DNA of 64,000 nt from an uncultured Gammaproteobacteria bacterium (GTDB lineage Bacteria > Patescibacteriota > Microgenomatia > Levybacterales > GWA1-39-11), in NCBI GenBank assembly GCA_964627245.1, contig CAZVGS010000001.1, positions 89,256 through 153,255 on the forward strand, given 5' to 3'. Below the pieces are notes generated by a model. That model searched no databases and was not told the DNA's origin. It was given only the letters and a program-made list of their open reading frames with translations. A program made the translations under genes and the position numbers. Shown piece by piece: positions 3,382 through 20,279 of this stretch; positions within the stretch are counted from its first letter, which is position 1, and each line of letters begins with the position of its first letter.

Positions 3382-3387
3382 AAGAAC

Positions 3388-3948
3388 TTATAACACAAAT
3401 AACAAGAAACCGCCTACTAGAAGGATTGCAATTCCCCCAATTATAGAAACAGTTTGAAAAATGCTTCCCGGAGGCTCTATTGTGGGGGTTGCTGTCGGGG
3501 GGACAGGTGTTGCGGTTGGCGGAACCGGGGTCGGTGTATCAATGATGGCATCAGCCTCACAGAGAAGCTGGTCGGTTCCTGCAGCAGACAACCCCCCGCA
3601 AGAGCTGACAGCAACAACATCACACTTGTAAGTTCTCCCTTGAGTTATAGCAAAACTAACCTTTGCCGTGGAAGATGTTTGGGACGCATTATTTATGATA
3701 ATAGTACCTGTCTCAACTTCGGTTACCGTCACATTGAAAGACGCAGCATCAGCCTGAGTACTCCACGCGCAACTTGCGGTAGTCAAATCACAACTCTCAC
3801 CATTACAGCCCGGGTATTCAACCGTAACGCCTGTAGGGGTTGCAGGCGCTGCGCAAGCTTGAGCGTATGAAGAGTCAACTTTGGTAAGAAAAAAAATAAT
3901 TCCAAAAAGAAATATTATCAAAAACTTTTTTAGCATAAACTCTAACAC
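3388..3948 (-). CDS. secreted protein with PT linker and C-terminal hydrophobic anchor
   Basis: Signal peptide ending SSYAQA, a Cys-containing beta-rich domain, a repeated PTATPVPPTATP linker, and a terminal PPGS followed by a TM helix. Confidence 0.55.
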   Translation of the reverse strand: MLEFMLKKFLIIFLFGIIFFLTKVDSSYAQACAAPATPTGVTVEYPGCNGESCDLTTASCAWSTQADAASFNVTVTEVETGTIIINNASQTSSTAKVSFAITQGRTYKCDVVAVSSCGGLSAAGTDQLLCEADAIIDTPTPVPPTATPVPPTATPTIEPPGSIFQTVSIIGGIAILLVGGFLLFVL

Positions 3949-4121
3949 ATAAATGTATGTGTGCTTCCTATAATATACTCAGAAAATAACTTGAAGGTCA
4001 AGAGGAAATGGAAAAAATTTGTGAGCATGATGAGTATAGAATGGAACACCTTAGAATCCTCATTCATGCGAATCTATAATACTCTGAATAAGTATAACAT
4101 AGCGGTTCCTGCGTTTGCGTC

Positions 4122-4839: not shown

Positions 4840-4862
4840 AAAACTTGACTTCCTGCCCGTTA
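4840..4862 (+). promoter_or_regulatory. conserved promoter/operator-like box, copy 1 (AAAACTTGACTTCCTGCCCGTTA)
   Basis: 22 of 23 nt identical to 10587-10609. Contains the -35-like TTGACT. Lies 20 nt upstream of the RHH gene. Confidence 0.5.
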
Positions 4863-4881: not shown

Positions 4882-5037
4882 ATGAAGTCAACACGTGCGA
4901 CAATCATACTCTCTTCAGACGTTCATGAAGCCTTAAGACGAATGGCGTTTCAAAGACGGCTAAGCATCTCAAAACTGGTCCGACTTTCCCTCATTGACTT
5001 CCTTTTGAAGCATGGGGAGAAAAGACCGGAGGAATAG
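4882..5037 (+). CDS. ribbon-helix-helix (CopG/Arc-like) DNA-binding protein, 51 aa
   Basis: Found by hand because it is below the ORF-track cutoff: MKSTRATIILSSDVHEALRRMAFQRRLSISKLVRLSLIDFLLKHGEKRPEE. It shows the beta-strand/helix/helix pattern of RHH repressors and antitoxins. Confidence 0.55.
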   Translation: MKSTRATIILSSDVHEALRRMAFQRRLSISKLVRLSLIDFLLKHGEKRPEE

Positions 5038-5712: not shown

Positions 5713-5795
5713 TGATCACTTACTGTTCGGAATGCGGGTACAGACTTTTCCGGGGTAAATACCGATACTACTGTATTAACAAAGAATGCTTATGA
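5712..5795 (+). CDS. possible 27-aa zinc-ribbon mini-protein
   Basis: Hand-translated MITYCSECGYRLFRGKYRYYCINKECL (CxxC…CxxxxC). The start abuts the upstream stop. It is very short, so speculative. Confidence 0.2.
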   Translation: MITYCSECGYRLFRGKYRYYCINKECL

Positions 5796-5968
5796 TAGAT
5801 GAATTACTTGATGATATGGCAATTGAGATTGAACGGCTAATGGTAAGCGATGCGGTTAAAGCCCGCCTGAGATTACAGCTTGCAGAGCTTGCGGATAATA
5901 CCCAGGAGCTACGGCTGAAAGCACTATTTGACTGTATTCTGTTCGAGGCCAAAAAACTAAACACATGA
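5786..5968 (+). CDS. hypothetical small helical protein
   Basis: 60-aa ORF with an ATGA overlap onto the next ORF. Confidence 0.4.
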   Translation: MLMIDELLDDMAIEIERLMVSDAVKARLRLQLAELADNTQELRLKALFDCILFEAKKLNT

Positions 5969-7141: not shown

Positions 7142-7399
7142 ATGGATTATAAAACTGCCAGTGAGCTACTTAGAGAACTTTCTCTACTTTGGATATGGGA
7201 AGCCGGAAACTATAATAATAAAATTCCATCCAACTTGCTTACCCGGGATCTTTGTTATTATGACCAGGCGTGCGACTATTTACGACGATTTCCTAAAACA
7301 GGTGATCTTGAACGTGTGGCCCTCGCTCAAATGCAGATGAATTACATTGACGATATTGAGGGGAATAATGAAATGGAAAAATTATTTTCCATCCTCTAA
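7142..7399 (+). CDS. hypothetical protein, 85 aa
   Basis: Internal Met (MDYKTASELL…) of track ORF 7043..7399. The upstream part of that ORF contains a terminator and a promoter. Confidence 0.4.
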   Translation: MDYKTASELLRELSLLWIWEAGNYNNKIPSNLLTRDLCYYDQACDYLRRFPKTGDLERVALAQMQMNYIDDIEGNNEMEKLFSIL

Positions 7400-7525
7400 C
7401 CTTTTAATTACATCAGCTCTTCTCTTCCGTACTTCATCAAGGAGTTTCTTACGTCTTTCACGGACTTCATTGTACATGGGTTTTACTACTACTCGTGGCT
7501 TTCTAAACTTCCCGTATTCAGTCAT
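7382..7525 (-). CDS. possible 47-aa basic protein at the end of the cargo operon
   Basis: Hand-translated MTEYGKFRKPRVVVKPMYNEVRERRKKLLDEVRKRRADVIKRLEDGK. The ATG lies 3 nt after the upstream stop. No other support. Confidence 0.2.
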   Translation of the reverse strand: MTEYGKFRKPRVVVKPMYNEVRERRKKLLDEVRKRRADVIKRLEDGK

Positions 7526-7528
7526 ACG

Positions 7529-7822
7529 TTAGTACTCTCCTACGCGTTCAGCCCATTGAGGAGGTGTTCTTTCGTCCTCTTCGCTATGTAATTGAGTTTC
7601 AAATGATATTTTCGAGGCGTGTTCTATAGTGGAATCTTTACCTACTTCGCCACCTATTCCGAGTACGGTAATTCCTACTTTTCCGCCTCCCTTGTCACTC
7701 TTGGTAACTGCAATATCAAATTTAACGGAGCTTGAAACATAATTACCGCCAGTGTGAGCGTCCTTTATCTGCCTGAGGCTTTCTTGTATGAAGTCTTTTA
7801 GTTCGTTATTTTCGTCTGCCAT
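7529..7822 (-). CDS. trypco2-like (trypsin-co-occurring domain 2 / CU044_2847-like) small protein; family assignment tentative
   Basis: 97 aa. The pattern LKDFIQESLRQIKDA…VKFDIAVTKSDKGGGKVGITVLGIGGEVGKDSTIEHASKISFETQL resembles the helix plus beta-hairpin Gly-rich pattern I recall for trypco2 domains. Confidence 0.45.
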   Translation of the reverse strand: MADENNELKDFIQESLRQIKDAHTGGNYVSSSVKFDIAVTKSDKGGGKVGITVLGIGGEVGKDSTIEHASKISFETQLHSEEDERTPPQWAERVGEY

Positions 7823-7823
7823 A

Positions 7824-8291
7824 TTATACGGTTACCTTCTTTTTCTTGAACCTTCTGTATCCTAAATATCCCAATCCCCCAAGTAGTGCCATTGCCACAA
7901 CCCCACCACCTCCACTATCTTCACTCGCTCCCTGAACGGCTATGGTTGGTGTAGGCTCTTTGGGCGAGGGTGTATTCGTGGGTTCATCCGTAGGTTCAGC
8001 GGTAGGAGTAGGAGTATTGGTAACAGCACGGGTTGGTATTCTCGAGGGTGCGGTTGTGTTTATCGGTGCAAATTGTTTTACGGGTGCGGTTGTTGCAACG
8101 GGTGCACTTTCAACCCTTTTTACGCTTCCGTCTGGGTTATGGTGGTGATATTCTCCAGAGCCTAAACCCCATTCTTCGCAATTAGTACGGCATCTATGAC
8201 CACCGCTCCCGTCGGTCCCTCCAGGATGGGCTTCTATAGGGGAAACAGATATATAGAAGAGCAGGGATAAGATAAGTAAAGTTTGATACAT
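7824..8291 (-). CDS. YHYH-domain secreted protein with PT linker and C-terminal TM/basic anchor
   Basis: Signal peptide, then AHPGGTDGSGGHRCRTNCEEWGLGSGEYHHHN (YHYH-family signature), a PT-rich linker, and GGGGVVAMALLGGLGYLGYRRFKKKK at the C-terminus. Confidence 0.7.
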   Translation of the reverse strand: MYQTLLILSLLFYISVSPIEAHPGGTDGSGGHRCRTNCEEWGLGSGEYHHHNPDGSVKRVESAPVATTAPVKQFAPINTTAPSRIPTRAVTNTPTPTAEPTDEPTNTPSPKEPTPTIAVQGASEDSGGGGVVAMALLGGLGYLGYRRFKKKKVTV

Positions 8292-8310
8292 TAACCAGTA
8301 TTATACTCCT

Positions 8311-10227
8311 TTAATCGTGCCAAATGTCATTACCTCTCGCATCCATACCTAACCACTGCTGAGATTTTTCTAATTCCTCACGCCAGTACCACCCGCCGGG
8401 AACTTTTTCTTCTGTCTTTTTCTTAATAGCTGGTTTCCGTGTTGGGGTCGGAGACGGAGCTTCAGTTGTTATCGGGCTAGGGGTAACTGATGGTATTGCG
8501 TTTACCGTTGCTACCGGAGAAAGAATTTCGAGAGCACTCACTTCTTTTATCTTTGTTGCCGAATCAAATAAATAGTAAGTAGTAAATCCAGATACAGTTG
8601 CAAATACAGAGATGAAAATAATGATTTGACTTACAGTGAGATAATTAGCTCTAATGTGTGAAAATGCATAATTAATCCGTTTTGATAGGGGTGGGATTTC
8701 ACTTAACCGTCTTTTGGTATTTCTCATCTGTACAACCAAAATAAACGTTATTATGAAATTCCAAAAAATCCAGAATTGAATAGAAAAATAATCAATATCA
8801 AATAAATGAATATCCCCTGTCCTTAGCCCAATCAGAATTAGAATAGTATAGAAAGTGAAATATATGGTTACAAACCGTGTCGTTTGTGAGAAAGCATGAG
8901 AGACAGATTTGTGTTTCGCGTTAGTTGAAACCCATCCGACAGATTTTTTGAACAATGCGGTTTTTACTGCGTGGGAATACGCATAAGTTCGAGCCATGAG
9001 AATTCCAAAATACCCGAATCGAAATTTAGCGACTGGGAATAACCACAGGTAAACAATTGCAAAAATTAAGTGAGGGTAAAAGAGCAAACTCTTACCGAGA
9101 GGAATATATTCATTGTATAAGAACAGTGTCCAAAAGAGATGGAAAGAGAAGAGGATCATCAAAGGGTGATGTAAATAGAACATAAACCCGGTAATAAAGC
9201 AGAATTTGGTTTTCCACGATGTCTTACCTTTCCAGAAAAATTTTGAAAGCATTAATCGCAAACTACCCATACACCATCTATGTTGTTGGTGGAAAAAGGC
9301 GTATTGATTATCCGGGCATAATCCAATAGATAGAAGTATCGGTACAAATAGAACCCTTAAACCTACTCTTGAAATAGCGTACCCAGTATGAGCATCTTCA
9401 CTGTATTCAATCTGATAGGGTCCGCCGATTGCCTCGATTGCACTTCTCCGATACAATGCACACGAACCACAGCATATAGCCCCCCCGAATCGACTTCTCG
9501 TCACTTGAATAAATCGGTAAAATGGCTCTTCGGCAAATGCTGCGTTATATGCGAATTTTGATTTTTTATATGCATTATCTGACAAATCAAAGTATTGAGG
9601 CGTTTGAACAATTCCGACAGTTGGATCATCCATATACGGGAGCGTTTCTTTTATAAAATCGGGATGGGGTGCGAAATCAGCATCAAAGATTGCGATAAAA
9701 TGACCATTAGACCTCTCAAAAGTATGTTTCAAATTTCCAGCCTTTTTCATATGTCCCTTATTCGGCCGTTCCATATAAACGAATCCAAAGTGTTGAGCCA
9801 ATTCTTTATGCGCCTCGAAATTTTCCTTCGAATCATCCAATACGTATACGGTTTTATTTTTATAGTTAATGTTTGATACGTGTTCCCAGGTATTTCTGAG
9901 TACGTCAACTTCTTCACCACAAATAGGCAAGAAAATATCAACGGGGGGTTCTTTGTCATATGATTTTACAAGTGCAAAGTGTTTCAGCAAGTCAAATTGA
10001 CGGTAAAACAAGTTAAGGCCAAAGCTGGCAAGGTGATAAATAGAGAGTAGTATAAAAATTGGAATGACAAAAAATGAATAAAACGGGTCTATCCCTATGA
10101 CGTTCCAGTACCCAAGCATAATCAAGATCCATGAGAAAATCCCAAATCCATACAGTAATCTAACTTTCCAGGTGGGAGTTTTTTCAATATACAGGTACTT
10201 ATTAATTGTCGAGGGGTTGGGGAGCAT
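8311..10227 (-). CDS. processive family-2 glycosyltransferase (cellulose/chitin-synthase-like) with a C-terminal PT-rich tail
   Basis: 638 aa, multi-TM, with VLDDS, FDADF, QTPQYF, SEDAHTG and QQHRW (QxxRW) motifs. There is an extra C-terminal TM region, a PT linker and a GGWYWREE…tail. Confidence 0.85.
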   Translation of the reverse strand: MLPNPSTINKYLYIEKTPTWKVRLLYGFGIFSWILIMLGYWNVIGIDPFYSFFVIPIFILLSIYHLASFGLNLFYRQFDLLKHFALVKSYDKEPPVDIFLPICGEEVDVLRNTWEHVSNINYKNKTVYVLDDSKENFEAHKELAQHFGFVYMERPNKGHMKKAGNLKHTFERSNGHFIAIFDADFAPHPDFIKETLPYMDDPTVGIVQTPQYFDLSDNAYKKSKFAYNAAFAEEPFYRFIQVTRSRFGGAICCGSCALYRRSAIEAIGGPYQIEYSEDAHTGYAISRVGLRVLFVPILLSIGLCPDNQYAFFHQQHRWCMGSLRLMLSKFFWKGKTSWKTKFCFITGFMFYLHHPLMILFSFHLFWTLFLYNEYIPLGKSLLFYPHLIFAIVYLWLFPVAKFRFGYFGILMARTYAYSHAVKTALFKKSVGWVSTNAKHKSVSHAFSQTTRFVTIYFTFYTILILIGLRTGDIHLFDIDYFSIQFWIFWNFIITFILVVQMRNTKRRLSEIPPLSKRINYAFSHIRANYLTVSQIIIFISVFATVSGFTTYYLFDSATKIKEVSALEILSPVATVNAIPSVTPSPITTEAPSPTPTRKPAIKKKTEEKVPGGWYWREELEKSQQWLGMDARGNDIWHD

Positions 10228-10232
10228 ACGAA

Positions 10233-10532
10233 CTAGTTACCACCATTTCGTACACGGGACACAAAATCTCTAATTCTTTGTTGAAAGTCATTGTTATATT
10301 CTTTGAATTCTGGATTACGAACAGCTTTACAGCTTGGATAAGAAATTTGTCGATTAAATGGAAGTTCGCGTGTTACAGTCTGACAAACAATAGTTACAGG
10401 TGTATGAGGATTATCATAAATTGGCGGTGTTACTCCACCTCCACCATAAGCAGAAGCTGTTGGAACGTTAAATAAGAATACGGAGAGAATAAATGTGAGT
10501 ATAAATAACTTTTTCATCCTTAAAAGCATCAT
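10233..10532 (-). CDS. small secreted protein (first gene of cargo operon)
   Basis: 99 aa with signal peptide MKKLFILTFILSVFLFNVPTASA. Separated from the GT2 gene by 5 nt. Confidence 0.55.
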   Translation of the reverse strand: MMLLRMKKLFILTFILSVFLFNVPTASAYGGGGVTPPIYDNPHTPVTIVCQTVTRELPFNRQISYPSCKAVRNPEFKEYNNDFQQRIRDFVSRVRNGGN

Positions 10533-10586: not shown

Positions 10587-10609
10587 AAAACTTGACTTCC
10601 TGTCCGTTA
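10587..10609 (+). promoter_or_regulatory. conserved promoter/operator-like box, copy 2 (AAAACTTGACTTCCTGTCCGTTA)
   Basis: 22 of 23 nt identical to 4840-4862. Confidence 0.5.
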
Positions 10610-10656
10610 GTACGATAGGGTTTCATCATAAGCTAAACAGCCAAGCACTAGCACTT

Positions 10657-10692
10657 AGCGACTAATCGTATTTTCGAGAGGTCGCTTTTTTT
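10657..10692 (+). terminator. promoter-proximal intrinsic terminator in the leader of the 10790-16553 operon
   Basis: AGCGAC…GTCGCT stem with an internal loop, followed by TTTTTTT. It lies 47 nt after box copy 2 and about 100 nt before the first gene. Confidence 0.45.
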
Positions 10693-10789
10693 GTGGCTGG
10701 AATGTTGAAAAGCGGGGGTTCCTCCTTCAACAAGGGGTCCATAATGCCCCCGCCTTTGAGCCTTTCAGTTAAATGATACAAGGTTAAAT

Positions 10790-11062
10790 ATGAAGAAAGT
10801 AAGCAGAAACAATTTATACAGAGAGATAGACAAATTATTCCTTTGGTTAATTCAGTTACCCGATACTGATGCCGATGAGGATAAGTCTTTGCGTGAAATT
10901 CAGAAACATCTTGTCAGGTTATCAAATCTGAAAAGTGAGGAATACACTCAGGAAGCTCCTGAACAGCCGGAACAACCGCAACAGCAGGAACCGCAAAAGC
11001 CGTTAACCGATATGCAACGAAAAATTATGAGCGGGGAAATCTCGATAGGAGGACAGGAATAA
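10790..11062 (+). CDS. hypothetical acidic protein
   Basis: 90-aa ORF, first of a co-directional array of 7 ORFs. Confidence 0.5.
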   Translation: MKKVSRNNLYREIDKLFLWLIQLPDTDADEDKSLREIQKHLVRLSNLKSEEYTQEAPEQPEQPQQQEPQKPLTDMQRKIMSGEISIGGQE

Positions 11063-11063
11063 A

Positions 11064-12101
11064 ATGGCTTGGGGCGAACAGGGACAGAAAATTACATGGA
11101 CACCGAACGTAGTTTCAGACGATAAGAAACAACACGGCGGATGGTATGACAATCCTTCAACGGGATATAACCAACGGTGGTACTCAGGCGGTGCAACCAG
11201 TGAAAACGGTAACTCTTCCTCTAGTGGCTTCTCAATTCCTCAACCTGATATGGAAGCAATCAATCGGGAGTATCAGCCTATTTATGAGAATTATGCCCGT
11301 GATGAGCAGTTCTTAAAAGAATCCCAGGCAAGTGAGCAGGAAATGCTTAATGACAATTTTACTCTTGCCGATACCCGACTTGATAGGAATAAAACGGAGC
11401 GCGAGTTACACAACAAGGAACAGGAAACTACACTTAATAATCAATACCGCTCAGCGTACGAGGAAGTAGTACGCGCACAGAACGCATTAACACAGCAGGG
11501 AAATGTACGATTCGGAGGCACATCTTCAGCGGGTCGGGCTATGGGAGAAATCGCACAAAGTGAATTCTTCCGACAGTCAGGAAAAATACAGAATACCCAT
11601 CTTGAGAATATAGGCAGAATTCAGTCCGATTGGAGAAAATATCTTTCTTGGCATGCGGACGAAGAGCAAAGACTGGTCCAGGAGAAAAGACACGAAACCA
11701 CAAAACTTCAAAACACGTACAAACAGATGTATGTTCAGATTGCAAATAACCGTAACATCACAAAATCAGAACAGGCACGGGCACAGCGCAACGCTCAGGA
11801 AACATACCAGGCACGTAAGGCAGACCTTGAGAACTCTATCAAACTCAGACAGATGGCAATGGATGAGTACGCCCAAAAACTCAGAATGGAACTTGATGCG
11901 CAAATTGAGTTAGCGGGTAAAACAGCCTATTCGGTATCGGATAACACGTTTGCAAGTGATACTCAGTCAGATGTTGACGGTGTAAGTTATGTTCCTTCCG
12001 AGAACGGCAGTCTTATGAATATGAATACCAGTTATGTAAATCCGTTCGCACGCGCACGATACAGCGATGATGAATTTGAGGATAATCCTTATTTCGCTTA
12101 A
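11064..12101 (+). CDS. Gln/Asn/Glu-rich coiled-coil protein, function unknown
   Basis: 345-aa ORF. The N-terminus has GGWYDNPSTGYNQRWY and the centre is long, heptad-like and charged. It starts 1 nt after the upstream stop. Confidence 0.6.
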   Translation: MAWGEQGQKITWTPNVVSDDKKQHGGWYDNPSTGYNQRWYSGGATSENGNSSSSGFSIPQPDMEAINREYQPIYENYARDEQFLKESQASEQEMLNDNFTLADTRLDRNKTERELHNKEQETTLNNQYRSAYEEVVRAQNALTQQGNVRFGGTSSAGRAMGEIAQSEFFRQSGKIQNTHLENIGRIQSDWRKYLSWHADEEQRLVQEKRHETTKLQNTYKQMYVQIANNRNITKSEQARAQRNAQETYQARKADLENSIKLRQMAMDEYAQKLRMELDAQIELAGKTAYSVSDNTFASDTQSDVDGVSYVPSENGSLMNMNTSYVNPFARARYSDDEFEDNPYFA

Positions 12102-12106
12102 TAACT

Positions 12107-15100
12107 ATGGAATTAAAATCACTGCTCAGAGACGTTTCACGCCGTTATAACGAATATAACCGTAAACAGAAAAAACCACGCATACAGCCGAGTCTTATTG
12201 AAGATGTCGGGAACCGATTCCGCTCATTCGTAAAAGAACAGTCTCAGGAAGGCCAACCGCTCCACAAAATAACCCGCACCATTCAGGAATTACCGTTAGT
12301 TACACAACGCGAAGTAGATGAGGTCGGGACCCGCTTTCGCTCTTTCGTGGATGAAAGACAAAAAAATGTTGATGATGTGGGTAAACGATTCGGGGAATTC
12401 AAAGTAAAGGCTTCTCAGTTTTCAAAGGATTATGACCCGTTCAACTTTGATGAAAAAGCCCCGATAAATCAGCTTCCCGTTCTCGGCGATATCCGCAGAA
12501 CATTACAGCCGTATACAAATCCTTATAAATTAGGTCCTATGGAACTGATGCGCAGAAATACGGAACTCATGCAAAAAGAGAGTAAAGGAATTGCATTGAC
12601 CGATGAGGAAAAGGAATTTCAGAAGTATTACATGACCGAACAGGCTTCTATGGTTATGCCGATGGGTACGGTCGGTAAAGTGGCAAAACCCGCATTAACC
12701 GCATTGCAGAAAGAAGCCGTAAAGAAATTACCTAAAATACTCTATGAATTTGATGCTAAGACCGCAAACAAGGTAATTGATGAAGCAAAAGGAGCCTCTA
12801 AAGAATGGGTTGATGAATTCAAATCATGGGTAAATACCAGAGCATCCGCACAGCTTCAGGGACTGAATCAGCGGATGAAATTCAAGGATATGGATTCTGA
12901 GGGAATTGCAGGTATTTTTAAGTTCCAGGCAGGAGACAAGACGGGACGGTTTGCCGATGTGAAGAAATTTTTTGATTCCCGCTATTCAGAACTTCAGAAA
13001 GCAGGAGTTGAATTCAGATATAAACAGGAGTATCTACCGCAACTATGGCTTAATTCAAAAGAAGAGGTTGAGGAACGGCTCGGACGAACTCTTACTTCCC
13101 GTCCTTCCTTCTCTCTTCGATCAGTAATTGAGAATTATCAGAAAGGAATAGCTAACGGACTAAAACCGCGCTTTCAGACATTATCGGAACTTATCGGATG
13201 GTATGAGGCAAAAACGGCCAAAGTTATAGCGGATCAGAATTTTTACAACTACATGAAGAAGGCAAAGTATATTCTTCCTGAGGATACGGCTCCTGCATGG
13301 TGGAAAACGATAGATTCCGAGAAGTTTCCGAAGTTCACGGTTAAAGTAGGTTCGGAGGTTAAGAATCTGAACTATAAAGCTGAGGGAAGAATTGCGGATG
13401 CTATTAACAATTATCTTAATGACCCTGAAGGAGCATTACCAGCTTTTGCTGACTTTGCCACGAAGGTTAAGAATCTGGGATTATCGGCAGGCGTACCCCA
13501 TACTTCAATTAACTTTCACGGCTATAACATCTTCGTCCGTTCGGTCCTGGCAAGTAATAACCCCGTATCTTCTATTTTCAGAACAGGCCAATGGATGCTT
13601 AAACCCAAAATTGCGGAACGGTTTGTTATGAATAACCTTGAGGATGCGCAGTATTTTGTTAAAAACGGCATGACCATGAGTACCGAGGATTACGGACTGT
13701 TCGAGGCGGTTGAGAAGGTTAAAAAAAGCGGTGTAATTAATAAGACATTAGATAAATATGAGGAATGGTTCGGGGACCCTCTGTTTAAGAAATCCCTTCC
13801 CGCAATCAAAATTCAGTATACCCGCGCATTGTTTGATGATTTACTCAAAACATTGCCTGAAGAGGAAGCGGTAAAGATAGCCGTAAAAAGCGCAAATGAT
13901 GTATTCGGGGGAATTAATTTGAATGAACTGATGCGCAACAAACAAACACAAAATGTACTCCGTTCCGTTCTGCTCGCGCCAGACTGGGCTGAGTCTACAA
14001 TCAGAATGGGTAAAGGAATTGTTAAAGGAGTTGCCAACCCGTTAAGCCCCGAGTACAAAGCATACCGTACTTTTGCCAAAAACATGGTATTCGGGTATAT
14101 CACGGCCAACGTTGTGAATAAAGCTCTGTCAGGTCACTGGATGTTTGAAAATGAAGGTAACAATAAATTCAATATTGATACCGGTACATATACGGGAGAC
14201 GGTAAGAAACGGTACTTCAGAATCTGGGGTACGGCCGTTGATTTTGCCAGACTTCCTGTTGATATCGTTAACGGTCTCTCAAAAGGCGATCCGTCAGCAT
14301 TTGTCAGAACCTTCACTAACCGCTTATCCATGCCTGTAGGTTCAGCAGGACATTTACTATTCAATAAAGATTATCTCGGACGGCCCGTATACGGAAAAGA
14401 CCAATGGGGAAATGAAATCGACCCTATACAGTCAGCAGGAGGCATAACAAATGAAGTATTACGCGGTGTCGGAACTCCTACTCAGGTAATGGCGGGTATT
14501 GATTTACTTACAGGGCGTTCAAATCCCGAACAGGCTCTTGCTCAGTCACTTGAACTTCCGATGCGATATCAGGGAGGAGCAAGCTCGGACACACAGAAAA
14601 GAAGAAATGCAGCGTTTCAGTCTCTCGGCTTTGAAGGCGAAGCATTAGCCCGCGAAATGGAGAGAACAAAGGGTATGAGATATTCGGGAAGTCAGGGAGA
14701 AGAAAAGTCACTGCTTGACCATATCGGAGAAAAGTTCATGAGCGTATTCGGTAAGAAAGAACCTAACAGACCTCAGCCGAATGACCCGCTTACAAAGGCT
14801 TTTCTTGCGGATATCGAAAAGGATGAGAATGCTACCCGTGTAAGAGAAGTATTCAAATTAGGTTTAAGCAAGGAACAGACAGAACAGTTACTTGAAAAGG
14901 AAGGATTAGGTACGTATGAAGAAGCTGAATTGATAATTATGAAAGCTCTCGGTGTTGAGAACGGAACTCGTGGAAATTACATTCAGGAGATTACAAAGGG
15001 AATGGATGATGAAAGTAAAGAGGCCACTCTTTCCTATCTGGCCGAGAACGAAATTCTGACTACCTCAGTTATATCCCAATGGGTTGATGACGGGGAAATA

Positions 15101-15391
15101 ACAGACGAGGAAGCCGATTATCTGAAGGACCTGATTAAAAAAAGTAAAGGAACGTACAAAGGTCCGAAGGCAAAAGGCGGTAAGAAAGCGGGCGCAAAGA
15201 AAGTAACGGCAGGAAGTATCCCGACAATTAAGATTCCTACTTTTGCGGGCGGTACGGTTAAGAGTGTCAGCAAGGCATATTACAAACCGATACCAAAGAT
15301 TACCTATGAAAGACCTACGCCTACTTCAAAACAAAAAGTATCAGCTCCGAAGCCTGAGACTAATTTTAAATCATACGGAGGGAACAACTAA
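12107..15391 (+). CDS. large (1094 aa) protein of unknown function with N-terminal triple repeat and basic C-terminal tail
   Basis: Longest ORF of the element. It has three copies of (D/E)(D/E)VG(N/T/K)RF(R/G)(S/E)F in the first ~100 aa and a Lys-rich C-terminus (KAKGGKKAGAKK…). I found no Walker A or other catalytic motif. Confidence 0.75.
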   Translation: MELKSLLRDVSRRYNEYNRKQKKPRIQPSLIEDVGNRFRSFVKEQSQEGQPLHKITRTIQELPLVTQREVDEVGTRFRSFVDERQKNVDDVGKRFGEFKVKASQFSKDYDPFNFDEKAPINQLPVLGDIRRTLQPYTNPYKLGPMELMRRNTELMQKESKGIALTDEEKEFQKYYMTEQASMVMPMGTVGKVAKPALTALQKEAVKKLPKILYEFDAKTANKVIDEAKGASKEWVDEFKSWVNTRASAQLQGLNQRMKFKDMDSEGIAGIFKFQAGDKTGRFADVKKFFDSRYSELQKAGVEFRYKQEYLPQLWLNSKEEVEERLGRTLTSRPSFSLRSVIENYQKGIANGLKPRFQTLSELIGWYEAKTAKVIADQNFYNYMKKAKYILPEDTAPAWWKTIDSEKFPKFTVKVGSEVKNLNYKAEGRIADAINNYLNDPEGALPAFADFATKVKNLGLSAGVPHTSINFHGYNIFVRSVLASNNPVSSIFRTGQWMLKPKIAERFVMNNLEDAQYFVKNGMTMSTEDYGLFEAVEKVKKSGVINKTLDKYEEWFGDPLFKKSLPAIKIQYTRALFDDLLKTLPEEEAVKIAVKSANDVFGGINLNELMRNKQTQNVLRSVLLAPDWAESTIRMGKGIVKGVANPLSPEYKAYRTFAKNMVFGYITANVVNKALSGHWMFENEGNNKFNIDTGTYTGDGKKRYFRIWGTAVDFARLPVDIVNGLSKGDPSAFVRTFTNRLSMPVGSAGHLLFNKDYLGRPVYGKDQWGNEIDPIQSAGGITNEVLRGVGTPTQVMAGIDLLTGRSNPEQALAQSLELPMRYQGGASSDTQKRRNAAFQSLGFEGEALAREMERTKGMRYSGSQGEEKSLLDHIGEKFMSVFGKKEPNRPQPNDPLTKAFLADIEKDENATRVREVFKLGLSKEQTEQLLEKEGLGTYEEAELIIMKALGVENGTRGNYIQEITKGMDDESKEATLSYLAENEILTTSVISQWVDDGEITDEEADYLKDLIKKSKGTYKGPKAKGGKKAGAKKVTAGSIPTIKIPTFAGGTVKSVSKAYYKPIPKITYERPTPTSKQKVSAPKPETNFKSYGGNN

Positions 15392-15393
15392 TT

Positions 15394-15579
15394 ATGAATA
15401 AAAAGTGTCTTACATGCGGGACGGAATTACAGAAACGAAAACATGAAAGCCGGGCAAGATTTGAAAAAAAGCAGTTCTGTACGGCCGAACATGCCAGGAC
15501 ACATATGAAGGAAACAGGGCGTGGCTGGTGGAATCCGGAATTTGATAGAGGAAAACTCAGAGCAAAGGGGGTGAATTAA
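15394..15579 (+). CDS. small zinc-binding protein
   Basis: 61 aa with CLTC…CTAEH. Confidence 0.5.
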   Translation: MNKKCLTCGTELQKRKHESRARFEKKQFCTAEHARTHMKETGRGWWNPEFDRGKLRAKGVN

Positions 15580-15581
15580 AT

Positions 15582-15776
15582 ATGAACAAAGACCAATTAA
15601 GAGATGAAATGCAACAGGTAGCTTATGACACTATTCGGGGCGTTTCAGGACAACAGGTAAACGAGATTGATTACAAGAACGCGCTTGTATCAAAAACTCA
15701 GGAAGTCGTTGACGGAGCATATCAGCTCGGTTATAACGCGGGCTTTGAGGCGGGCAAAAACGCGCCACAAGGTTAA
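15582..15776 (+). CDS. hypothetical small protein
   Basis: 64-aa ORF, tightly packed against its neighbours. Confidence 0.5.
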   Translation: MNKDQLRDEMQQVAYDTIRGVSGQQVNEIDYKNALVSKTQEVVDGAYQLGYNAGFEAGKNAPQG

Positions 15777-15808
15777 GAAATATTAAAAATGAAAGGAGGT
15801 GTAAAAAT

Positions 15809-16201
15809 ATGATTCGCAGAGATAAAACAAATTACGATCCTAACAAGGATAAATACAACTGGACGAACGACATGTACCGACAGGATGAGCTTTCTAACAG
15901 GGATTTAGAAGAACAGAAAGCGATAATCAATAACTGGCAGGCTATGAGTGAAAGTAAAAATGAAGCTGAAAAAGCCGAATGGGAACTGAACAGAAGAATT
16001 GCAGCGGTTACCGAAACGGATAATGCAGACATCAGACAGAAAGAGGCAATTAAGAGATACAAAATAGCCCAAAAATATGACGAGATAATCCGTAGCAAAA
16101 TGACAAGAGGCCAGACAGAGGAAGAATTTGAAGAAGAACGTCATGAATACGGAGCATTGCATCGCAGGGCTTTAAAAGAGGCTATGCGGTCAATTGAATA
16201 A
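15809..16201 (+). CDS. hypothetical charged helical protein
   Basis: 130-aa ORF preceded by a strong SD (aaaggaggtgtaaaaatATG). Confidence 0.55.
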   Translation: MIRRDKTNYDPNKDKYNWTNDMYRQDELSNRDLEEQKAIINNWQAMSESKNEAEKAEWELNRRIAAVTETDNADIRQKEAIKRYKIAQKYDEIIRSKMTRGQTEEEFEEERHEYGALHRRALKEAMRSIE

Positions 16202-16553
16202 TATGAGGGACGAGAAATGTATTGAATGCAGTGAGCAATTCACGATTACGGAAAGTGAACAATCATTTTATGTAAAGATGGGGTTCTTTCTTCCGAAAAG
16301 ATGCGCTGATTGCAGAAGAAAAAGAAAAGCTCAATTCGGGCAGGAAAGGAGGTTTAACTTAATGAATAATTCAAAACTTACAACATCAAGAATTACAAAG
16401 GCCACGAAGCAGGAAGCACCTAAAAATGCTATAGATTTTGCTTCTGACCAGAGAAAGGGAGTAACCAACTCTCAGGCTCCTGAAATTCGTGCGAATAACG
16501 GAACCATCTCTAGCAACGGCGGACGGTTCGGCGGATTCCTTAAGAACCGCTAA
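16194..16553 (+). CDS. zinc-ribbon protein (zf-trcl-like CxxC…EQxFY…RCxxCR)
   Basis: 119 aa. CIECSEQFTITESEQSFYVKMGFFLPKRCADCRRKRK matches the pattern I recall for the 'probable zinc-ribbon' family. Confidence 0.55.
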   Translation: MNNMRDEKCIECSEQFTITESEQSFYVKMGFFLPKRCADCRRKRKAQFGQERRFNLMNNSKLTTSRITKATKQEAPKNAIDFASDQRKGVTNSQAPEIRANNGTISSNGGRFGGFLKNR

Positions 16554-16963
16554 CGGTAATTGGAGGGCAGGTTGTTGTTCGTGAGTTCAAACGGAAACGA
16601 GCAGTTTCCGGGTAATGTGTTCCTCATGAGCAACGCTCTGTCCTTCAGGACGGAATGGCTTACAGCCTGAGATTTCATAGCTCTCAGTCAACACCAACGG
16701 GCGGAGCGGGTAAAGAATGTGCAGGAAAATCAGTCTCACAATAATAACTTTACCTGCCCGCTACGAAGTGCATACTCTACGGCTCTGTAATGCCTCAAAA
16801 ACGAGAGGAAATGCCTGAATCATACACATATACCATTAACGGGGTAAGACACGAAAAACGAAACTATACGGCCTTCTGGACCATAGATGAATAATAAATA
16901 TATTATGTATGTACAGGCACATAATTAGTTAAGATAACAGTAATTACTTAACGTACTATAAGC

Positions 16964-16992
16964 TTGACAAGTCACTTCCAGCATGATACAAA
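16964..16992 (+). promoter_or_regulatory. sigma70-like promoter (TTGACA-17-TACAAA)
   Basis: Sequence agcTTGACAagtcacttccagcatgaTACAAA inside the 780-nt ORF-free region. Confidence 0.4.
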
Positions 16993-16999
16993 TAATATG

Positions 17000-17110
17000 T
17001 AGCAATAAAAAAGCTATCGGGTAATAAGTGTTTGAGCAAATGACCCTTTTCGGGTGCTGTTGTTCTAACTGCTTCAAACACGGCACAGCACTACCCGAAA
17101 GGGGTTTTTT
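17000..17110 (+). ncRNA. candidate ~110-nt small RNA (promoter to terminator unit)
   Basis: Bounded by the promoter at 16964-16992 and the strong terminator at 17043-17110. It contains a second helix (17028-17038 pairs with 17070-17081) interleaved with the terminator helix. Confidence 0.25.
17043..17110 (+). terminator. strong intrinsic terminator
   Basis: ACCCTTTTCGGGTGCTGT pairs with ACAGCA(cta)CCCGAAAGGGGT (12 + 6 bp with a 3-nt bulge and 24-nt loop), followed by TTTTTT. Confidence 0.7.
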
Positions 17111-17150
17111 ATTGGCTTACTACTAGCCCTATTAGTAGTGCACATACGGT

Positions 17151-17203
17151 AGAGGCAATCAGATGAATCGCGTAAAAGCGGAAAATCGGTTGTCTCTTTT
17201 TTT
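17151..17203 (+). terminator. second intrinsic terminator preceding the conserved leader box
   Basis: AGAGGCAA…TTGTCTCT outer stem with nested GAT/ATC and CGC/GCG pairs, followed by TTTTTTT. Confidence 0.45.
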
Positions 17204-17344
17204 GTGGCTTGAATGAGGGGAATCGTCAGCGCGTTCCTCTCCTTCAATTCGCAAGAATTGAGGTAAGTAGTTAAGTCCTTTGTCTGGCTGGCATTTGCTT
17301 CTTTGTCAGTCAGTCAAAGCATTTAAGGAAAGGGGGTGAAAATT

Positions 17345-18422: not shown

Positions 18423-18560
18423 ATGACTATTCAGGAAAAAGAACAATTAAAAAATTTACCTCCCTTACCTGAAGAGGTTGAAGCTAAATTGCGTGCATTC
18501 GTTAATCTGATTATCGACCGCGTGCAGGAAGAACAGGCCAAGGGGGTAGTAAAAAAATGA
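18423..18560 (+). CDS. possible 45-aa protein translationally coupled to the recombinase (RDF/accessory candidate)
   Basis: Hand-translated MTIQEKEQLKNLPPLPEEVEAKLRAFVNLIIDRVQEEQAKGVVKK. Its TGA overlaps the recombinase ATG (ATGA). Confidence 0.3.
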   Translation: MTIQEKEQLKNLPPLPEEVEAKLRAFVNLIIDRVQEEQAKGVVKK

Positions 18561-20233
18561 AGTATCAGGCAGTTGCTTTACTCCGTGTATCATCGACAAA
18601 ACAGGGCCTTCAGGGCGATTCTCCAGACGACCAAAAAGTTCAGATTATAATCAAGGCTTCCACCTTCAACATCTTACCCGAACAGATTAAATTCTTTAAG
18701 CTCATACAGTCAGCATCGGGCGAAATTCAGCCCGCACAGGACGTTATAGACTTCTGTAAAACAAATCAGGTTGAATACTGCTTTATTAAATCCATTGACC
18801 GATTTACGCGCGGTGGTGCCGATTTTTATCCATATCTTAAGAATCAACTTATAAAAGTAGGTGTTCAGTTAGTAGATGTATTCGGTGTGATCAATCCGAC
18901 AGAAGTGAATACTCTTGAACATCTCGGAATGTCATTCAAGTGGAGCAAATACCACCCTTCCTATACCTCCGAATTACTGGAAGCCGAACGCGCAAAGTCT
19001 GAGGTCCGGGATATTCTTTCCAGACTTATCGGGGCGGAAATCCGTTATATCCGTATGGGTTATTGGGTAGGTCCACCGCCACAGGGATTAGTTACCGATA
19101 AGATAGAGACTGACTTTGACGGAAAAAGAACAATTCTTTCCCCTGACCCGAAGCGAAGCATCTTCTTTAAGCGGATGTTTGAACTTCGCGCTCAGGGTAA
19201 TCTTACCGACCATGAAATAGTTACCGCAATCAATGAAATGGGATATAAATCCCCTGAAAGACGAAGAAGAAAGAGCAAGCACGACCCGACCGTTATCGGA
19301 ATAATCGGTGGTACGCCGTTAACCTGCAAGCAGATGAGAAACTTTATCGAAAACCCCATATACGCGGGAATAATCGTTCACGGATTCTCACAATTCAAGC
19401 CCGTAAAAGCGAAGTTCGAAGGACTTGTGAGTGTTGGTACATGGAACAAGGCCAATAGAGGCAGAGCTACAATCGTAACAGACGGAGATACGATCAGAAT
19501 TCTCAGACAGGAACCTGAATCGTGGCAATTAACCAAGCAGAAGCAGAATCCTGAATTTCCGTACAGGGAGTTCGTATTATGTTCTGAGTGTAAACACCCG
19601 CTGAAAGGTTCATTCTCTACCGGGAAACTCGGCAAAAAGTATCCGGGATATCATTGTTCGCTCAGACATAAGCTTTATAGAATCCCGAGGAAGGACTTTG
19701 ATAAAACCATAGAGAAATTTGTATCAGAGGTAAAGTTCTCCGACCGATTCAAACTATATCTCAAAAAGTACGCGCTTGAGGAAATGGAGAAACGAAGAAT
19801 GCTTGCGGTTGATGATTCGCTGCATTTCCAACAACTCACGGCAAACCTGACGGCCGAGAAAAAACTAATCCTTGAGAAAGTGAAAATCCTCTCAAATCCT
19901 CTCATGCTCAAAGAACTTGAAAAACAGCTTGAAGATGTGGAGGCAAAGCTTATTCAGGCCAAGCAGAAGCGCAATAATAAGGAAGAAGCTGAGGTTCAAA
20001 TTGACACTTTAATTGCACATGCGAATTATTACATGGAACACCTCAAGGAATTACTCTTTTCAGGCACGAATCCGATACGGGACGCGGAGTTTTTCAGCCT
20101 GTTATTTGAAGAATTACCTACCTATAAAGAACTGGAGGATGGAACACCTAAATTAGATTGTCTGTTCAGGCTAAATGAAGCATTCAATACGCCTCAAAGT
20201 GATGTTGTGAGCGGCCAGGGACTCGAACCCTGA
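18557..20233 (+). CDS. large serine recombinase (integrase)
   Basis: 558 aa. N-terminal resolvase domain (ALLRVSSTKQ with catalytic Ser, IDRFTRGG), a recombinase domain (GYWVGPPPQG), a zinc ribbon (CSECKHPL…YHCS) and a C-terminal coiled coil. The last 26 nt overlap tRNA-Lys on the opposite strand. Confidence 0.9.
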   Translation: MKYQAVALLRVSSTKQGLQGDSPDDQKVQIIIKASTFNILPEQIKFFKLIQSASGEIQPAQDVIDFCKTNQVEYCFIKSIDRFTRGGADFYPYLKNQLIKVGVQLVDVFGVINPTEVNTLEHLGMSFKWSKYHPSYTSELLEAERAKSEVRDILSRLIGAEIRYIRMGYWVGPPPQGLVTDKIETDFDGKRTILSPDPKRSIFFKRMFELRAQGNLTDHEIVTAINEMGYKSPERRRRKSKHDPTVIGIIGGTPLTCKQMRNFIENPIYAGIIVHGFSQFKPVKAKFEGLVSVGTWNKANRGRATIVTDGDTIRILRQEPESWQLTKQKQNPEFPYREFVLCSECKHPLKGSFSTGKLGKKYPGYHCSLRHKLYRIPRKDFDKTIEKFVSEVKFSDRFKLYLKKYALEEMEKRRMLAVDDSLHFQQLTANLTAEKKLILEKVKILSNPLMLKELEKQLEDVEAKLIQAKQKRNNKEEAEVQIDTLIAHANYYMEHLKELLFSGTNPIRDAEFFSLLFEELPTYKELEDGTPKLDCLFRLNEAFNTPQSDVVSGQGLEP

Positions 20234-20279
20234 ACCGATTCCTTAAGAGGGAATTGCTCTACCATTGAGCTAGCCGCCC
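20208..20279 (-). tRNA. tRNA-Lys (anticodon CUU)
   Basis: Manual fold: GGGCGGC/TA/GCTC-AATGGTA-GAGC/A/ATTCC-CTCTTAA-GGAAT/CGGTT/CAGGG-TTCGAGT-CCCTG/GCCGCTC/A. All stems pair, with one G-U. CCA is not encoded. Confidence 0.9.

Follow-up and report, generated by a model that had tools for sequence, protein, structure and literature searches.

A candidate podovirus-type ejection module on a putative satellite-like integrated element of a Levyibacteriota bacterium

The stretch of DNA analysed here (the window, 64,000 nucleotides) carries an integrated element, whose host is a Levyibacteriota (CPR) bacterium. The element spans about 4.04-20.15 kb, and is thus ~16.1 kb long if the two copies of an 11-nt direct repeat are its ends. 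Its main features are the following.

4041..4051, no strand: left copy of the 11-nt direct repeat ATGGAACACCT, candidate att core
7529..10532, minus strand: cargo block inside the element, opposite in strand to the pair
10790..11062, plus strand: 90-aa ORF heading the operon of the pair, conserved in the related locus L003
11064..12101, plus strand: 345-aa ORF, upstream partner of the large protein; ATG start, no cysteine, coiled-coil
12107..15391, plus strand: 1094-aa ORF; ATG start, no cysteine; member of a large unannotated family that resembles phage-type polyvalent and internal-virion proteins
15394..16553, plus strand: small ORFs of 61, 64, 130 and 119 aa downstream of the pair, co-conserved with it in L003, L007 and L001
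17690..18106, plus strand: HTH_36 / replication-initiator-like protein (Pfam HTH_36, 3.5e-10; PHROG replication initiation, 7e-13)
18557..20233, plus strand: large serine recombinase (integrase), full length, at the right end of the element
20139..20149, no strand: right copy of the 11-nt repeat ATGGAACACCT, candidate att core
20207-20279, minus strand: tRNA-Lys(CTT), overlapping the 3' end of the integrase gene

The 345-aa and 1094-aa ORFs are both intact and adjacent, and they are kept together as a pair in relatives. Much of what the initial annotation had read from the letters of these two ORFs stands. Their coordinates and lengths are exactly as claimed, and the smaller protein is indeed rich in Q, N and E and in long helices (E 9.0, Q 9.0, N 8.4 and S 8.4%). 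The N-terminal part of the 1094-aa protein contains the three tandem copies described of the motif [DE][DE]VG.RF..F, at residues 32, 71 and 89 (nt 12200-12229, 12317-12346 and 12371-12400); no copy at all arose in 20,000 shuffled versions of the protein. The large protein, whose highest Kyte-Doolittle mean over 19 residues is 0.95, has no transmembrane segment, and it lacks a Walker A motif, in line with the reported lack of membrane and NTPase motifs. The lysine-rich C-terminal tail is also confirmed, the last 70 residues having 13 K, 8 P and a net charge of +12, and a basic tail rich in K and P recurs among homologs. An origin of the large ORF by assembly fusion, a possibility raised at the same time, is ruled out by homologs that are colinear with it: one of 1124 aa, which aligns over 100% of the query at 58% identity, and one of 1092 aa.

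The smaller protein was modelled using AlphaFold2.

11250..11924, plus strand: antiparallel helical hairpin, residues 63-287 (AlphaFold2, pLDDT about 95 over residues 63-250)
11511-11537: hairpin tip motif FGGTSSAGR, residues 150-158, Gly/Ser-rich and conserved

In the model, one very long helix covers residues 63-150 and a second covers residues 155-287, and the ends of the protein are predicted to be disordered and rich in Q, N and S. From the helix lengths, the predicted hairpin would be roughly 13 nm long. F150, G151, S155 and G157, all within the tip, are nearly invariant across the family. In L001-L007, L008/L021, L009, L018 and L108 a homolog sits immediately 5' of the large gene, and the two genes are adjacent and in the same order in every tested related locus that covers the upstream side. 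The initial annotation compared this protein to a scaffold, fibre or tape-measure, for which we see no specific support. Its helical hairpin shape and its constant place just ahead of the large protein agree better with a partner in ejection or in the internal core, and the 345-aa protein is thus a candidate internal-core/ejection protein, by analogy with IVP-B/C.

The larger protein belongs to an unannotated family of 3,393 clusters at 50% identity. It is predicted to be divided as follows.

12107..12781, plus strand: variable N-terminal arm, residues 1-225, low-confidence helices, holding the three EDVGxRFxSF copies
12794..14686, plus strand: conserved all-alpha core of ~630 residues (230-860)
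14819..15151, plus strand: small helical C-terminal domain, acidic by its charge profile, residues 905-1015 (pLDDT about 90)
15179..15388, plus strand: disordered Lys/Pro-rich basic tail, residues 1025-1094, charge +12, candidate DNA-contacting segment

The core carries the motifs WVNTR, YLPQLW, GLxPRF, NNYL, INxHG, LAPDW, GTAxDFxRxP, NRLS and ELPxRY, and has no match in Pfam, PHROG or the PDB. No Pfam domain, and no recognisable effector domain, was identified anywhere in the window's 1094-aa protein, nor did the Pfam and PHROG searches find homology to any non-structural enzyme family, a result that the initial annotation had named as one that would speak against its proposal. The Pfam LPD models match neither this protein nor any of 30 long relatives scanned, so that the core lies outside those models. 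Some of the 30 relatives do contain recognisable domains, namely ART-PolyVal (in two), HNH, RelA_SpoT, PARP, SprT-like, ParB_N and HATPase_c. In these longer proteins the conserved core is C-terminal, and the effector domains occupy the position of the N-terminal arm. Such domain combinations have been described in proteins that are injected together with DNA, and RelA/SpoT is listed as confined to phage-type polyvalent proteins (Iyer, Burroughs, Anand, de Souza and Aravind, 2017; PMC5512222).

The predicted structure of the large protein was compared with the predicted viral models in BFVD using Foldseek, as initially proposed. This gave 15 matches at E<=1e-3 with probability 1.0, the TM-scores being 0.2-0.5 and the targets themselves predicted models. 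The best are annotated as 'Large polyvalent protein associated domain-containing protein [uncultured Caudovirales phage]' (E 2.7e-15), and others as an LPD38 protein of a podovirus, Zeta toxin and methylase. A further match between predicted models, to A8HNV9_2 (1316 aa, E 2.2e-6), is most likely to one half of BA3_0002 (2631 aa; YP_001552271), judging from its length and the order of accessions. BA3_0002 is listed as the IVP-D homolog of phage BA3 (Hardies et al., PMC4819975). At the level of predicted structure, the core resembles phage 'large polyvalent' or IVP-D-type proteins in fold.

No link at the sequence level to any characterised ejection protein was found. The family profile showed no similarity in hhalign to T7 gp16 (E 0.78) or BA3_0002 (E 0.17), and none was found to T7 gp15; a four-sequence profile of the C-terminal modules of BA3, Pondi, Pavlov and PK1 gave E 0.15 and a probability of 0.4% over 300 colinear columns.

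Cysteine is almost completely excluded from the pair, with 2 in 101,168 residues of the 1094-aa family and 0 in 5,251 residues of the partner family; in the window's other ORFs it makes up 1.39%. T7 gp15 (0/747), T7 gp16 (0/1318) and BA3_0002 (0/2631) are likewise free of cysteine, as are Pondi_77, Pavlov20 and the PK1 giant protein. Cysteine is present in the portal, capsid and tail proteins of these comparison phages. Other exported or extracellular proteins are also depleted in cysteine, and the feature is therefore not specific to ejection proteins. The absence of any cysteine from both window proteins had been missed in the initial annotation.

The genomic setting of relatives is informative. 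In phage contigs of 30-45 kb, the pair forms the end of the tail module. The 37-kb IMG/VR contig L021 has, in order, a tail fibre, phrog_6013 (a tail protein), a tail/virion protein of 651 aa and a virion structural protein of 318 aa, and then homologs of the pair, one of 449 aa for the 345-aa protein (hhalign 99.1%) and one of 1129 aa for the large protein. In L012, tail/host-specificity and tail-fibre genes are followed by the homolog and then by a replication module with PolA on the opposite strand. The position in both contigs is that of gp13-gp16 in T7, and the internal virion proteins of most podoviruses have the same end-of-tail-module position (Hardies et al., PMC4819975). As the window element itself has no tail or head gene, the argument from synteny rests on relatives that are 35-42% identical.

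Comparison with T7 gp15/gp16 (IVP-C/IVP-D) and the extended IVP-D family (PMC4819975) shows several parallels: a smaller protein and a very large one, which in relatives close the tail module, both extensively α-helical in the predicted models and both wholly free of cysteine. All IVP-C/D candidates are extensively α-helical (Hardies et al., PMC4819975). As in the family studied here, the N-terminal part of IVP-D proteins is variable and hosts add-on domains. In T7 gp16 the add-on is a transglycosylase. H66 gp60 carries a methylase there, and N4 gp50 an RNA polymerase (Hardies et al., 2016, PMC4819975). The window pair differs in the size of the partner (345 rather than about 750 residues), in the absence of a muralytic domain, in its location on an element devoid of head and tail genes, and in having a CPR bacterium as host. 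P22 gp7, gp20 and gp16 are also α-helical and occupy a syntenic internal-virion position, with different sizes, and have been described as an alternative solution to DNA injection (Hardies et al., PMC4819975). The resemblance to polyvalent proteins (PMC5512222) lies in the LPD-annotated models being the best structural matches, and in the ART-PolyVal, RelA/SpoT, HNH, SprT-like, ParB_N and HATPase domains of the relatives. Polyvalent proteins combine at least two disparate domains in one polypeptide, as the longer relatives do but the window protein does not; having no recognisable effector domain, the latter would be a bare carrier module.

On the basis of synteny in phages, fusion to effector domains, similarity of fold and exclusion of cysteine, we consider that the 1094-aa protein is probably an internal-virion or ejection protein, which supports the guess made in the initial annotation. 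The reading that we favour, with a probability of roughly 55%, is that the pair is a podovirus-type internal-virion (DNA-ejection) module on a satellite-like element. Both proteins would be made late and packed in a phage head. At infection they would leave the head through the portal-tail channel in an unfolded state, before the DNA, and would then refold at or in the Levyibacteriota envelope to open or line a route for the DNA, with the 345-aa protein as the smaller core or conduit partner. The N-terminal arm holds the three EDVGxRFxSF helices, in the place that is taken in relatives by injected effector enzymes. A role of the Lys-rich tail in binding nucleic acid is plausible, and with its charge of +12 it probably contacts the DNA.

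No gene for a capsid, portal, terminase or tail is present in the element, judging by ORF sizes and by Pfam and PHROG searches, which gave no structural match; the only ORFs of capsid, portal or terminase size are the pair, the integrase and a glycosyltransferase. The element would thus be unable to build a virion alone, and the module would act only in the particles of another phage. We therefore suggest that the element is a satellite-like hitchhiker that brings its own ejection proteins. Phage satellites such as PICI, P4-like elements, PLE and capsid-forming PICI are the natural comparison. The window element resembles them in being ~16 kb long and integrated, with an integrase adjoining a tRNA gene, in having a replication initiator (primase-helicase in relatives), regulators and cargo, and in lacking capsid and tail genes, one relative having a terminase-like gene. 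It differs in its large serine recombinase, and no homology to known satellite marker genes was seen. We recognised no packaging-redirection gene (TerS, Sid or Cpm type) in the window, and no helper phage for the element was found. To our knowledge, no satellite family carries ejection or internal-virion proteins of its own.

The same layout, with a large serine recombinase and the pair and no conserved gene of capsid size, is common to the window element and five related small elements (L001, L002, L004, L007 and L108), and L007 has small ORFs in common with both halves of the window element. One of these five elements, the IMG/VR contig 3300020192_000784, encodes a serine recombinase, a terminase-like ATPase, a PrimPol and a D5-type helicase besides the pair. 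Its ends overlap imperfectly over about 245 nt, which indicates that the genome is circular or terminally redundant, with a size of about 16.3 kb. L108 is the only related element with a TerS-like and a Terminase_6N ORF, neither of which has a tblastn match in the window or in the other loci.

These small elements bear on the possibility that the locus is a decayed prophage, in which the pair was left behind after deletion of a podovirus head and tail and has no current function. The missing head and tail genes and the cargo block that interrupts the element on the opposite strand would agree with this, as would the searches for an empty site, a junction or an excised form of this element, which gave only chance matches. 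However, every ORF is intact, including the 1094-aa frame, and the integrase is full length; regulatory repeats of 23 and 24 nt are conserved within the element; and independent contigs share the same small layout of serine recombinase, pair and small ORFs without capsid genes, one of them apparently circular and from a virome collection. We regard decay as unlikely.

It is distinctly unlikely that the element is mobile by a route unrelated to phages, with the large protein as a pilot or anti-defence protein of polyvalent type, moved by conjugation, mobilisation or a competence-like route, and the coiled-coil protein as chaperone or adaptor. Polyvalent proteins are about equally common in conjugative elements and phages (PMC5512222), and the element does combine an integrase and an initiator with no virion genes, related elements having primase-helicases. 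Yet a tblastn search of 72,556 plasmids gave no match, none of the related loci contains a relaxase or T4SS gene, and family members lie among the tail genes of IMG/VR phage contigs. The terminase-like ATPase on one small element also implies packaging into a portal-bearing capsid that is not encoded there.

The initial annotation considered the element as a possible virus with the pair at its structural core, which the absence of genes of capsid, portal, terminase or tail size makes doubtful. We give little credence to the version in which the 15-16 kb elements are complete genomes of an autonomous novel virus, with a non-HK97 virion built mainly from the pair. The pair does occupy 27% of the element, as first noted (the figure fits the 16.1 kb bounded by the repeat), with no other large conserved gene; the core fold is unmatched among solved structures; and the 16.3-kb genome in IMG/VR is apparently circular. 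Against this, contigs of ordinary tailed phages, with tail fibres, carry the family as a late gene; giant virion-associated proteins of Caudoviricetes match it in predicted fold; and the terminase-like ATPase again points to a portal-bearing capsid. We know of no capsid fold that an all-α protein of 630 residues would resemble.

A tape-measure or scaffolding role, in which the helical proteins set tail length or capsid size and are not ejected, is highly improbable. Both have long helices and no cysteine, and weak BFVD matches include tape-measure annotations, but at probabilities of 0.06 and 0.66 these are not significant. The high-confidence core of the large protein, 630 residues long, is compact and is not one extended helix, and its gene comes last in the module, behind the tail fibres; in L012 and L021 no neighbouring gene is annotated as tail chaperone or baseplate.

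Among the remaining genes of the element, the 119-aa downstream ORF contains a treble-clef finger (zf_Tbcl). The cargo block encodes proteins of 97, 155, 638 and 99 aa, of which the second is a surface protein, the third a family-2 glycosyltransferase and the fourth secreted, and at the equivalent site L003 carries a restriction-modification system.

The two open reading frames (ORFs) described in the initial annotation are present as claimed, on the plus strand and 5 nt apart. They belong to a plus-strand block that closes with a large serine recombinase, and host genes are found on either flank of the region. The window belongs to a Candidatus Levyibacteriota genome (Patescibacteria/CPR); the UvrA that it encodes is up to 90% identical to UvrA of Levyibacteriota metagenome-assembled genomes. 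The features needed here are:

4041 and 20139, two copies of the 11-nt direct repeat ATGGAACACCT, spacing 16.1 kb
7529-10532, minus strand, cargo block with a 638-aa GT2 (cellulose-synthase-like) glycosyltransferase and small secreted/surface proteins
11064-12101, plus strand, 345-aa protein
12107-15391, plus strand, 1094-aa protein
18557-20233, plus strand, large serine recombinase (phrog_95, 2.6e-31), the 3' end of its gene overlapping tRNA-Lys(CTT)

The 1094-aa protein carries three copies of [DE][DE]VG.RF..F, at aa 32, 71 and 89 (nt 12200-12400), and no copy arose in 20,000 shuffles of its sequence. It has neither a TM segment nor a Walker A motif, and its C-terminal tail is basic (net charge +12 over the final 70 residues), all as first described. 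A fusion artefact of assembly was looked for and none was found, since the ORF is colinear with homologues of 1124 and 1092 aa.

Word-indexed searches returned only 7 and 6 relatives for the pair. In a collection of 15 billion proteins the 1094-aa protein is filed under a cluster represented by a 41-aa fragment, which is why the window's own protein was missing from the first homology search. An exhaustive profile search identified 3,393 clusters (50% identity) at E<=1e-3, 802 of them at E<=1e-30. Members of this family are 620-2067 aa long and have a core of about 600 aa in common, which is covered by neither Pfam nor PHROGs. Scans with both libraries, run on the two proteins and all their neighbours, gave no match for the pair; nor did PDB sequence searches with the family profiles. 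The 1094-aa protein had no tblastn match among 50,697 phage records or 72,556 plasmids, and a scan of GTDB species-representative genomes with a 5-sequence alignment turned up no relative.

The family relatives provide clues as to function. Among 30 long members, some contain ART-PolyVal, PARP-like, RelA/SpoT, HNH, SprT-like zincin, ParB_N or HATPase_c domains, the effector-type domains being located N-terminal to the core. Such N-terminal fusions are the hallmark of 'polyvalent proteins', whose predicted fate is packaging followed by injection along with the DNA; RelA/SpoT is reported solely for those of the phage type (PMC5512222).

The AlphaFold2 model of the 1094-aa protein, generated from an 89-sequence alignment, is almost wholly α-helical, with pLDDT above 90 at aa 230-860 and around 90 at aa 905-1015. 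Foldseek against BFVD, a set of predicted viral structures, gave 15 matches at probability 1.0. The top match is a 'Large polyvalent protein associated domain-containing protein' of an uncultured Caudovirales (E 2.7e-15); others are a podovirus LPD38 protein, giants annotated as methylase and Zeta-toxin, and A8HNV9_2. [quoted passage not shown] Its C-terminal module is also present in Escherichia phage Pondi and Bacillus phages Pavlov and PK1, and in Pavlov a tail fibre and a 'lytic tail protein' are encoded ahead of the giant gene, with the holin and endolysin genes after it.

At the level of profiles, hhalign against T7 gp15, T7 gp16 and BA3_0002 was not significant and gave no link to the family; a small BA3/Pondi/Pavlov/PK1 profile aligned colinearly across 300 columns, with a non-significant E of 0.15. 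No solved ejectosome structure matches the model. We therefore do not place the 1094-aa protein in the gp16 family; we propose that it has a predicted fold in common with phage proteins of the IVP-D/polyvalent class, and that it works like IVP-D or a polyvalent carrier.

Gene order points in the same direction. Family members occur at 15 loci in IMG/VR. A 37-kb phage contig (L021) encodes, in this order, a tail fibre and a tail protein, a tail/virion protein of 651 aa, a virion structural protein of 318 aa, a 449-aa protein homologous to the 345-aa one (hhalign 99.1%) and then a 1129-aa homologue of the large protein. On a 45-kb contig (L012) the homologue ends a block that holds tail/host-specificity and tail-fibre genes, and adjoins a replication module on the opposite strand, which has DUF3987, PolA-UDG and ParB-methylase genes; PHROG annotation of the upstream half of this phage (L104) was uninformative. 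The position of the homologues on L021 and L012 is that of gp13-gp16 in T7, and of the internal virion proteins of nearly all non-Picovirinae podoviruses (Hardies et al., PMC4819975).

A further feature, missed by the initial annotation, is that neither protein of the pair contains cysteine. In the large family 2 of 101,168 residues are cysteine and in the partner family none of 5,251, compared with 1.39% in the other ORFs of the window. This exclusion resembles that in T7 gp15 (0/747) and gp16 (0/1318) and in four giant podoviral proteins of the virion module (1474-2631 aa), namely BA3_0002 (0/2631), Pondi_77 (0/2192), Pavlov20 (0/1679) and the PK1 giant (0/1474), whereas the portal, capsid and tail proteins of these phages do contain cysteine. 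Cysteine exclusion would reflect a constraint on proteins that cross the portal-tail channel unfolded and refold beyond the cytoplasm. The absence of cysteine may be a general marker of ejected proteins; if the ejection reading of the pair is correct, finding almost no cysteine in a large α-helical late protein could be used to predict ejection proteins simply, from the sequence alone.

The 345-aa protein is enriched in E, Q, N and S, in line with its earlier description as Q/N/E-rich. AlphaFold2, run on a 7-sequence alignment, predicts a helical hairpin (aa 63-150 and 155-287, pLDDT around 95), which we estimate from the helix lengths to be about 13 nm long. Both ends are disordered, and a conserved FGGTSSAGR lies at the hairpin tip, within a motif RFGGxSSAGRA common to the homologues. 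Foldseek against BFVD gave only non-specific coiled-coil matches, one of them at E<=1e-3. The suggestion of a scaffold, fibre or tape-measure gained no specific support. Wherever a related contig extends to the upstream side, a small homologue of 330-450 aa directly precedes a large one of 1000-1400 aa. Being invariably upstream of the large protein, free of cysteine and helical, the 345-aa protein fits an IVP-B/C-like partner and could act as a core-stack or conduit subunit or as an assembly factor.

Taken as a combined statement, the best supported reading is that the pair are ejection proteins, to which we give a probability of roughly 0.55. The earlier guess of an ejection protein is thus favoured by gene context, domain fusions, fold and lack of cysteine; the idea of a virus with a novel structural core that went with it is not supported, since Pfam and PHROG scans matched no capsid, portal, terminase or tail family in the element. 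What is new is a very large, unannotated, cysteine-free family resembling IVP-D and polyvalent carriers, which in this window is encoded by an integrative element that lacks capsid genes and resides in a CPR bacterium.

The limits of this element would be marked by the candidate 11-nt att repeats. We estimate, by hand, a probability of about 0.006 that the two junction zones would have an exact 11-mer in common by chance. A degenerate attL/attR/attB/attP pattern found only unrelated chance matches in metagenome and viral contigs, so the ends are proposed rather than established. A 33-nt imperfect repeat (76% identical, 20033-20065 and 20139-20171) lies within the 3'-terminal part of the integrase gene and opens with the sequence of the candidate att core, read in another frame; it may be left over from an earlier recombination event or belong to the attachment-site architecture. 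A related contig (L007) has homologues of small ORFs from the left part (5786-5968; 7382-7525, minus strand) as well as of right-part ones, and 4.1-20.2 kb is therefore a single type of element. Besides the pair, the integrase and the glycosyltransferase, its ORFs are at most 223 aa long. The glycosyltransferase block is regarded as cargo because the closest relative, L003, has a restriction-modification system at the equivalent place:

L003 219-2440, DNA methylase, R.HinP1I-like endonuclease and Vsr repair nuclease

This cargo hot spot is directly upstream of the operon holding the pair. To the left of the element (971-3948) are PT-rich surface proteins with no Pfam match, which may have been horizontally acquired. 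GC content is 0.40-0.46 in the first 20 kb, host-like genes upstream of the element included, and 0.34-0.40 downstream of two tRNA genes (21000-47000).

The window element and five related contigs (L001, L002, L004, L007 and L108) all have a large serine recombinase, the pair and many small ORFs, with no conserved capsid-sized gene and with variable replication genes:

L001, DnaG-DnaB fusion
L108, PrimPol and D5 helicase
window element, HTH_36 protein

L108 also has a TerS-like ORF and a Terminase_6N ORF. It forms, with L011, IMG/VR contig 3300020192_000784 (16,505 nt). The two ends of this contig overlap imperfectly over about 245 nt, which implies that the genome is circular or has terminal redundancy and measures about 16.3 kb. 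A 392-aa ORF on L108 (12854-14032, minus strand) resembles, by eye from its translation, an IS200/IS605-type TnpB, being RuvC-like with a C-terminal CxxC...CxxC. Exact terminal repeats are absent from eight whole contigs of about 15 kb or otherwise complete (L001, L003, L004, L006, L007, L008, L014 and L016), and tRNA genes from seven (L001, L002, L004, L005, L007, L011 and L016).

That this capsid-less layout recurs, with its genes intact, speaks against the random decay of a prophage and for a satellite-like way of life: the element would ride inside the particles of a helper phage and contribute its own ejection proteins. Since searches of species-representative genomes and of metagenome and viral contigs revealed neither a helper nor an excised form or empty site, we put the satellite part forward tentatively, at somewhat less than an even chance. 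An inovirus-like reading was dropped because neither a Zot/pI-type ATPase nor small TM coat proteins adjoin the pair.

If the ejection reading is correct, a family of thousands of clusters that is blank in current phage annotation libraries gains a functional handle, 'ejected with the DNA'. This would help most with CPR phages, whose entry is almost wholly uncharted, and the N-terminal arm would be a natural place to insert effectors for injection (ART, RelA/SpoT, HNH and others), a point that bears on anti-defence biology. If the satellite part is also correct, some small integrative elements in ultra-small bacteria would ride on phages while supplying their own entry machinery, a new and testable satellite strategy. 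A wider reading, which we consider rather doubtful, is that CPR bacteria have undescribed integrative satellites of about 15-16 kb, with their own cysteine-free ejection module in place of capsid-remodelling genes, and that the 630-aa all-α core defines a superfamily of more than 3,000 clusters (50% identity), outside Pfam and PHROGs, that carries injected effectors in phages of uncultivated bacteria.

The element also contains short repeats. A 23-nt repeat, AAAACTTGACTTCCTG(C/T)CCGTTA, includes a TTGACT -35-like hexamer and occurs at 4840-4862, upstream of a 51-aa ORF (4882-5037) that is ribbon-helix-helix-like by eye, and at 10587-10609, upstream of the operon holding the pair; it is probably a promoter/operator common to the units of the element. 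A 24-nt repeat, GTC(G/T)CTTTTTTTGTGGCT(G/T)GAATG, is found in the regions 10640-10704 and 17150-17215, preceded by a short hairpin resembling an intrinsic terminator. It closes a segment with no ORF of at least 60 aa downstream of the promoter-like repeat at 10587, and recurs in a 780-nt ORF-poor non-coding gap (16553-17336). An Rfam scan of the repeat and gap region gave no match. The gap contains a promoter-like site, TTGACA-17-TACAAA (16964), and a strong hairpin with a T-run (17038-17115), and the ORF-poor segments with the 24-nt repeat may represent small RNAs or a region of replication origin.
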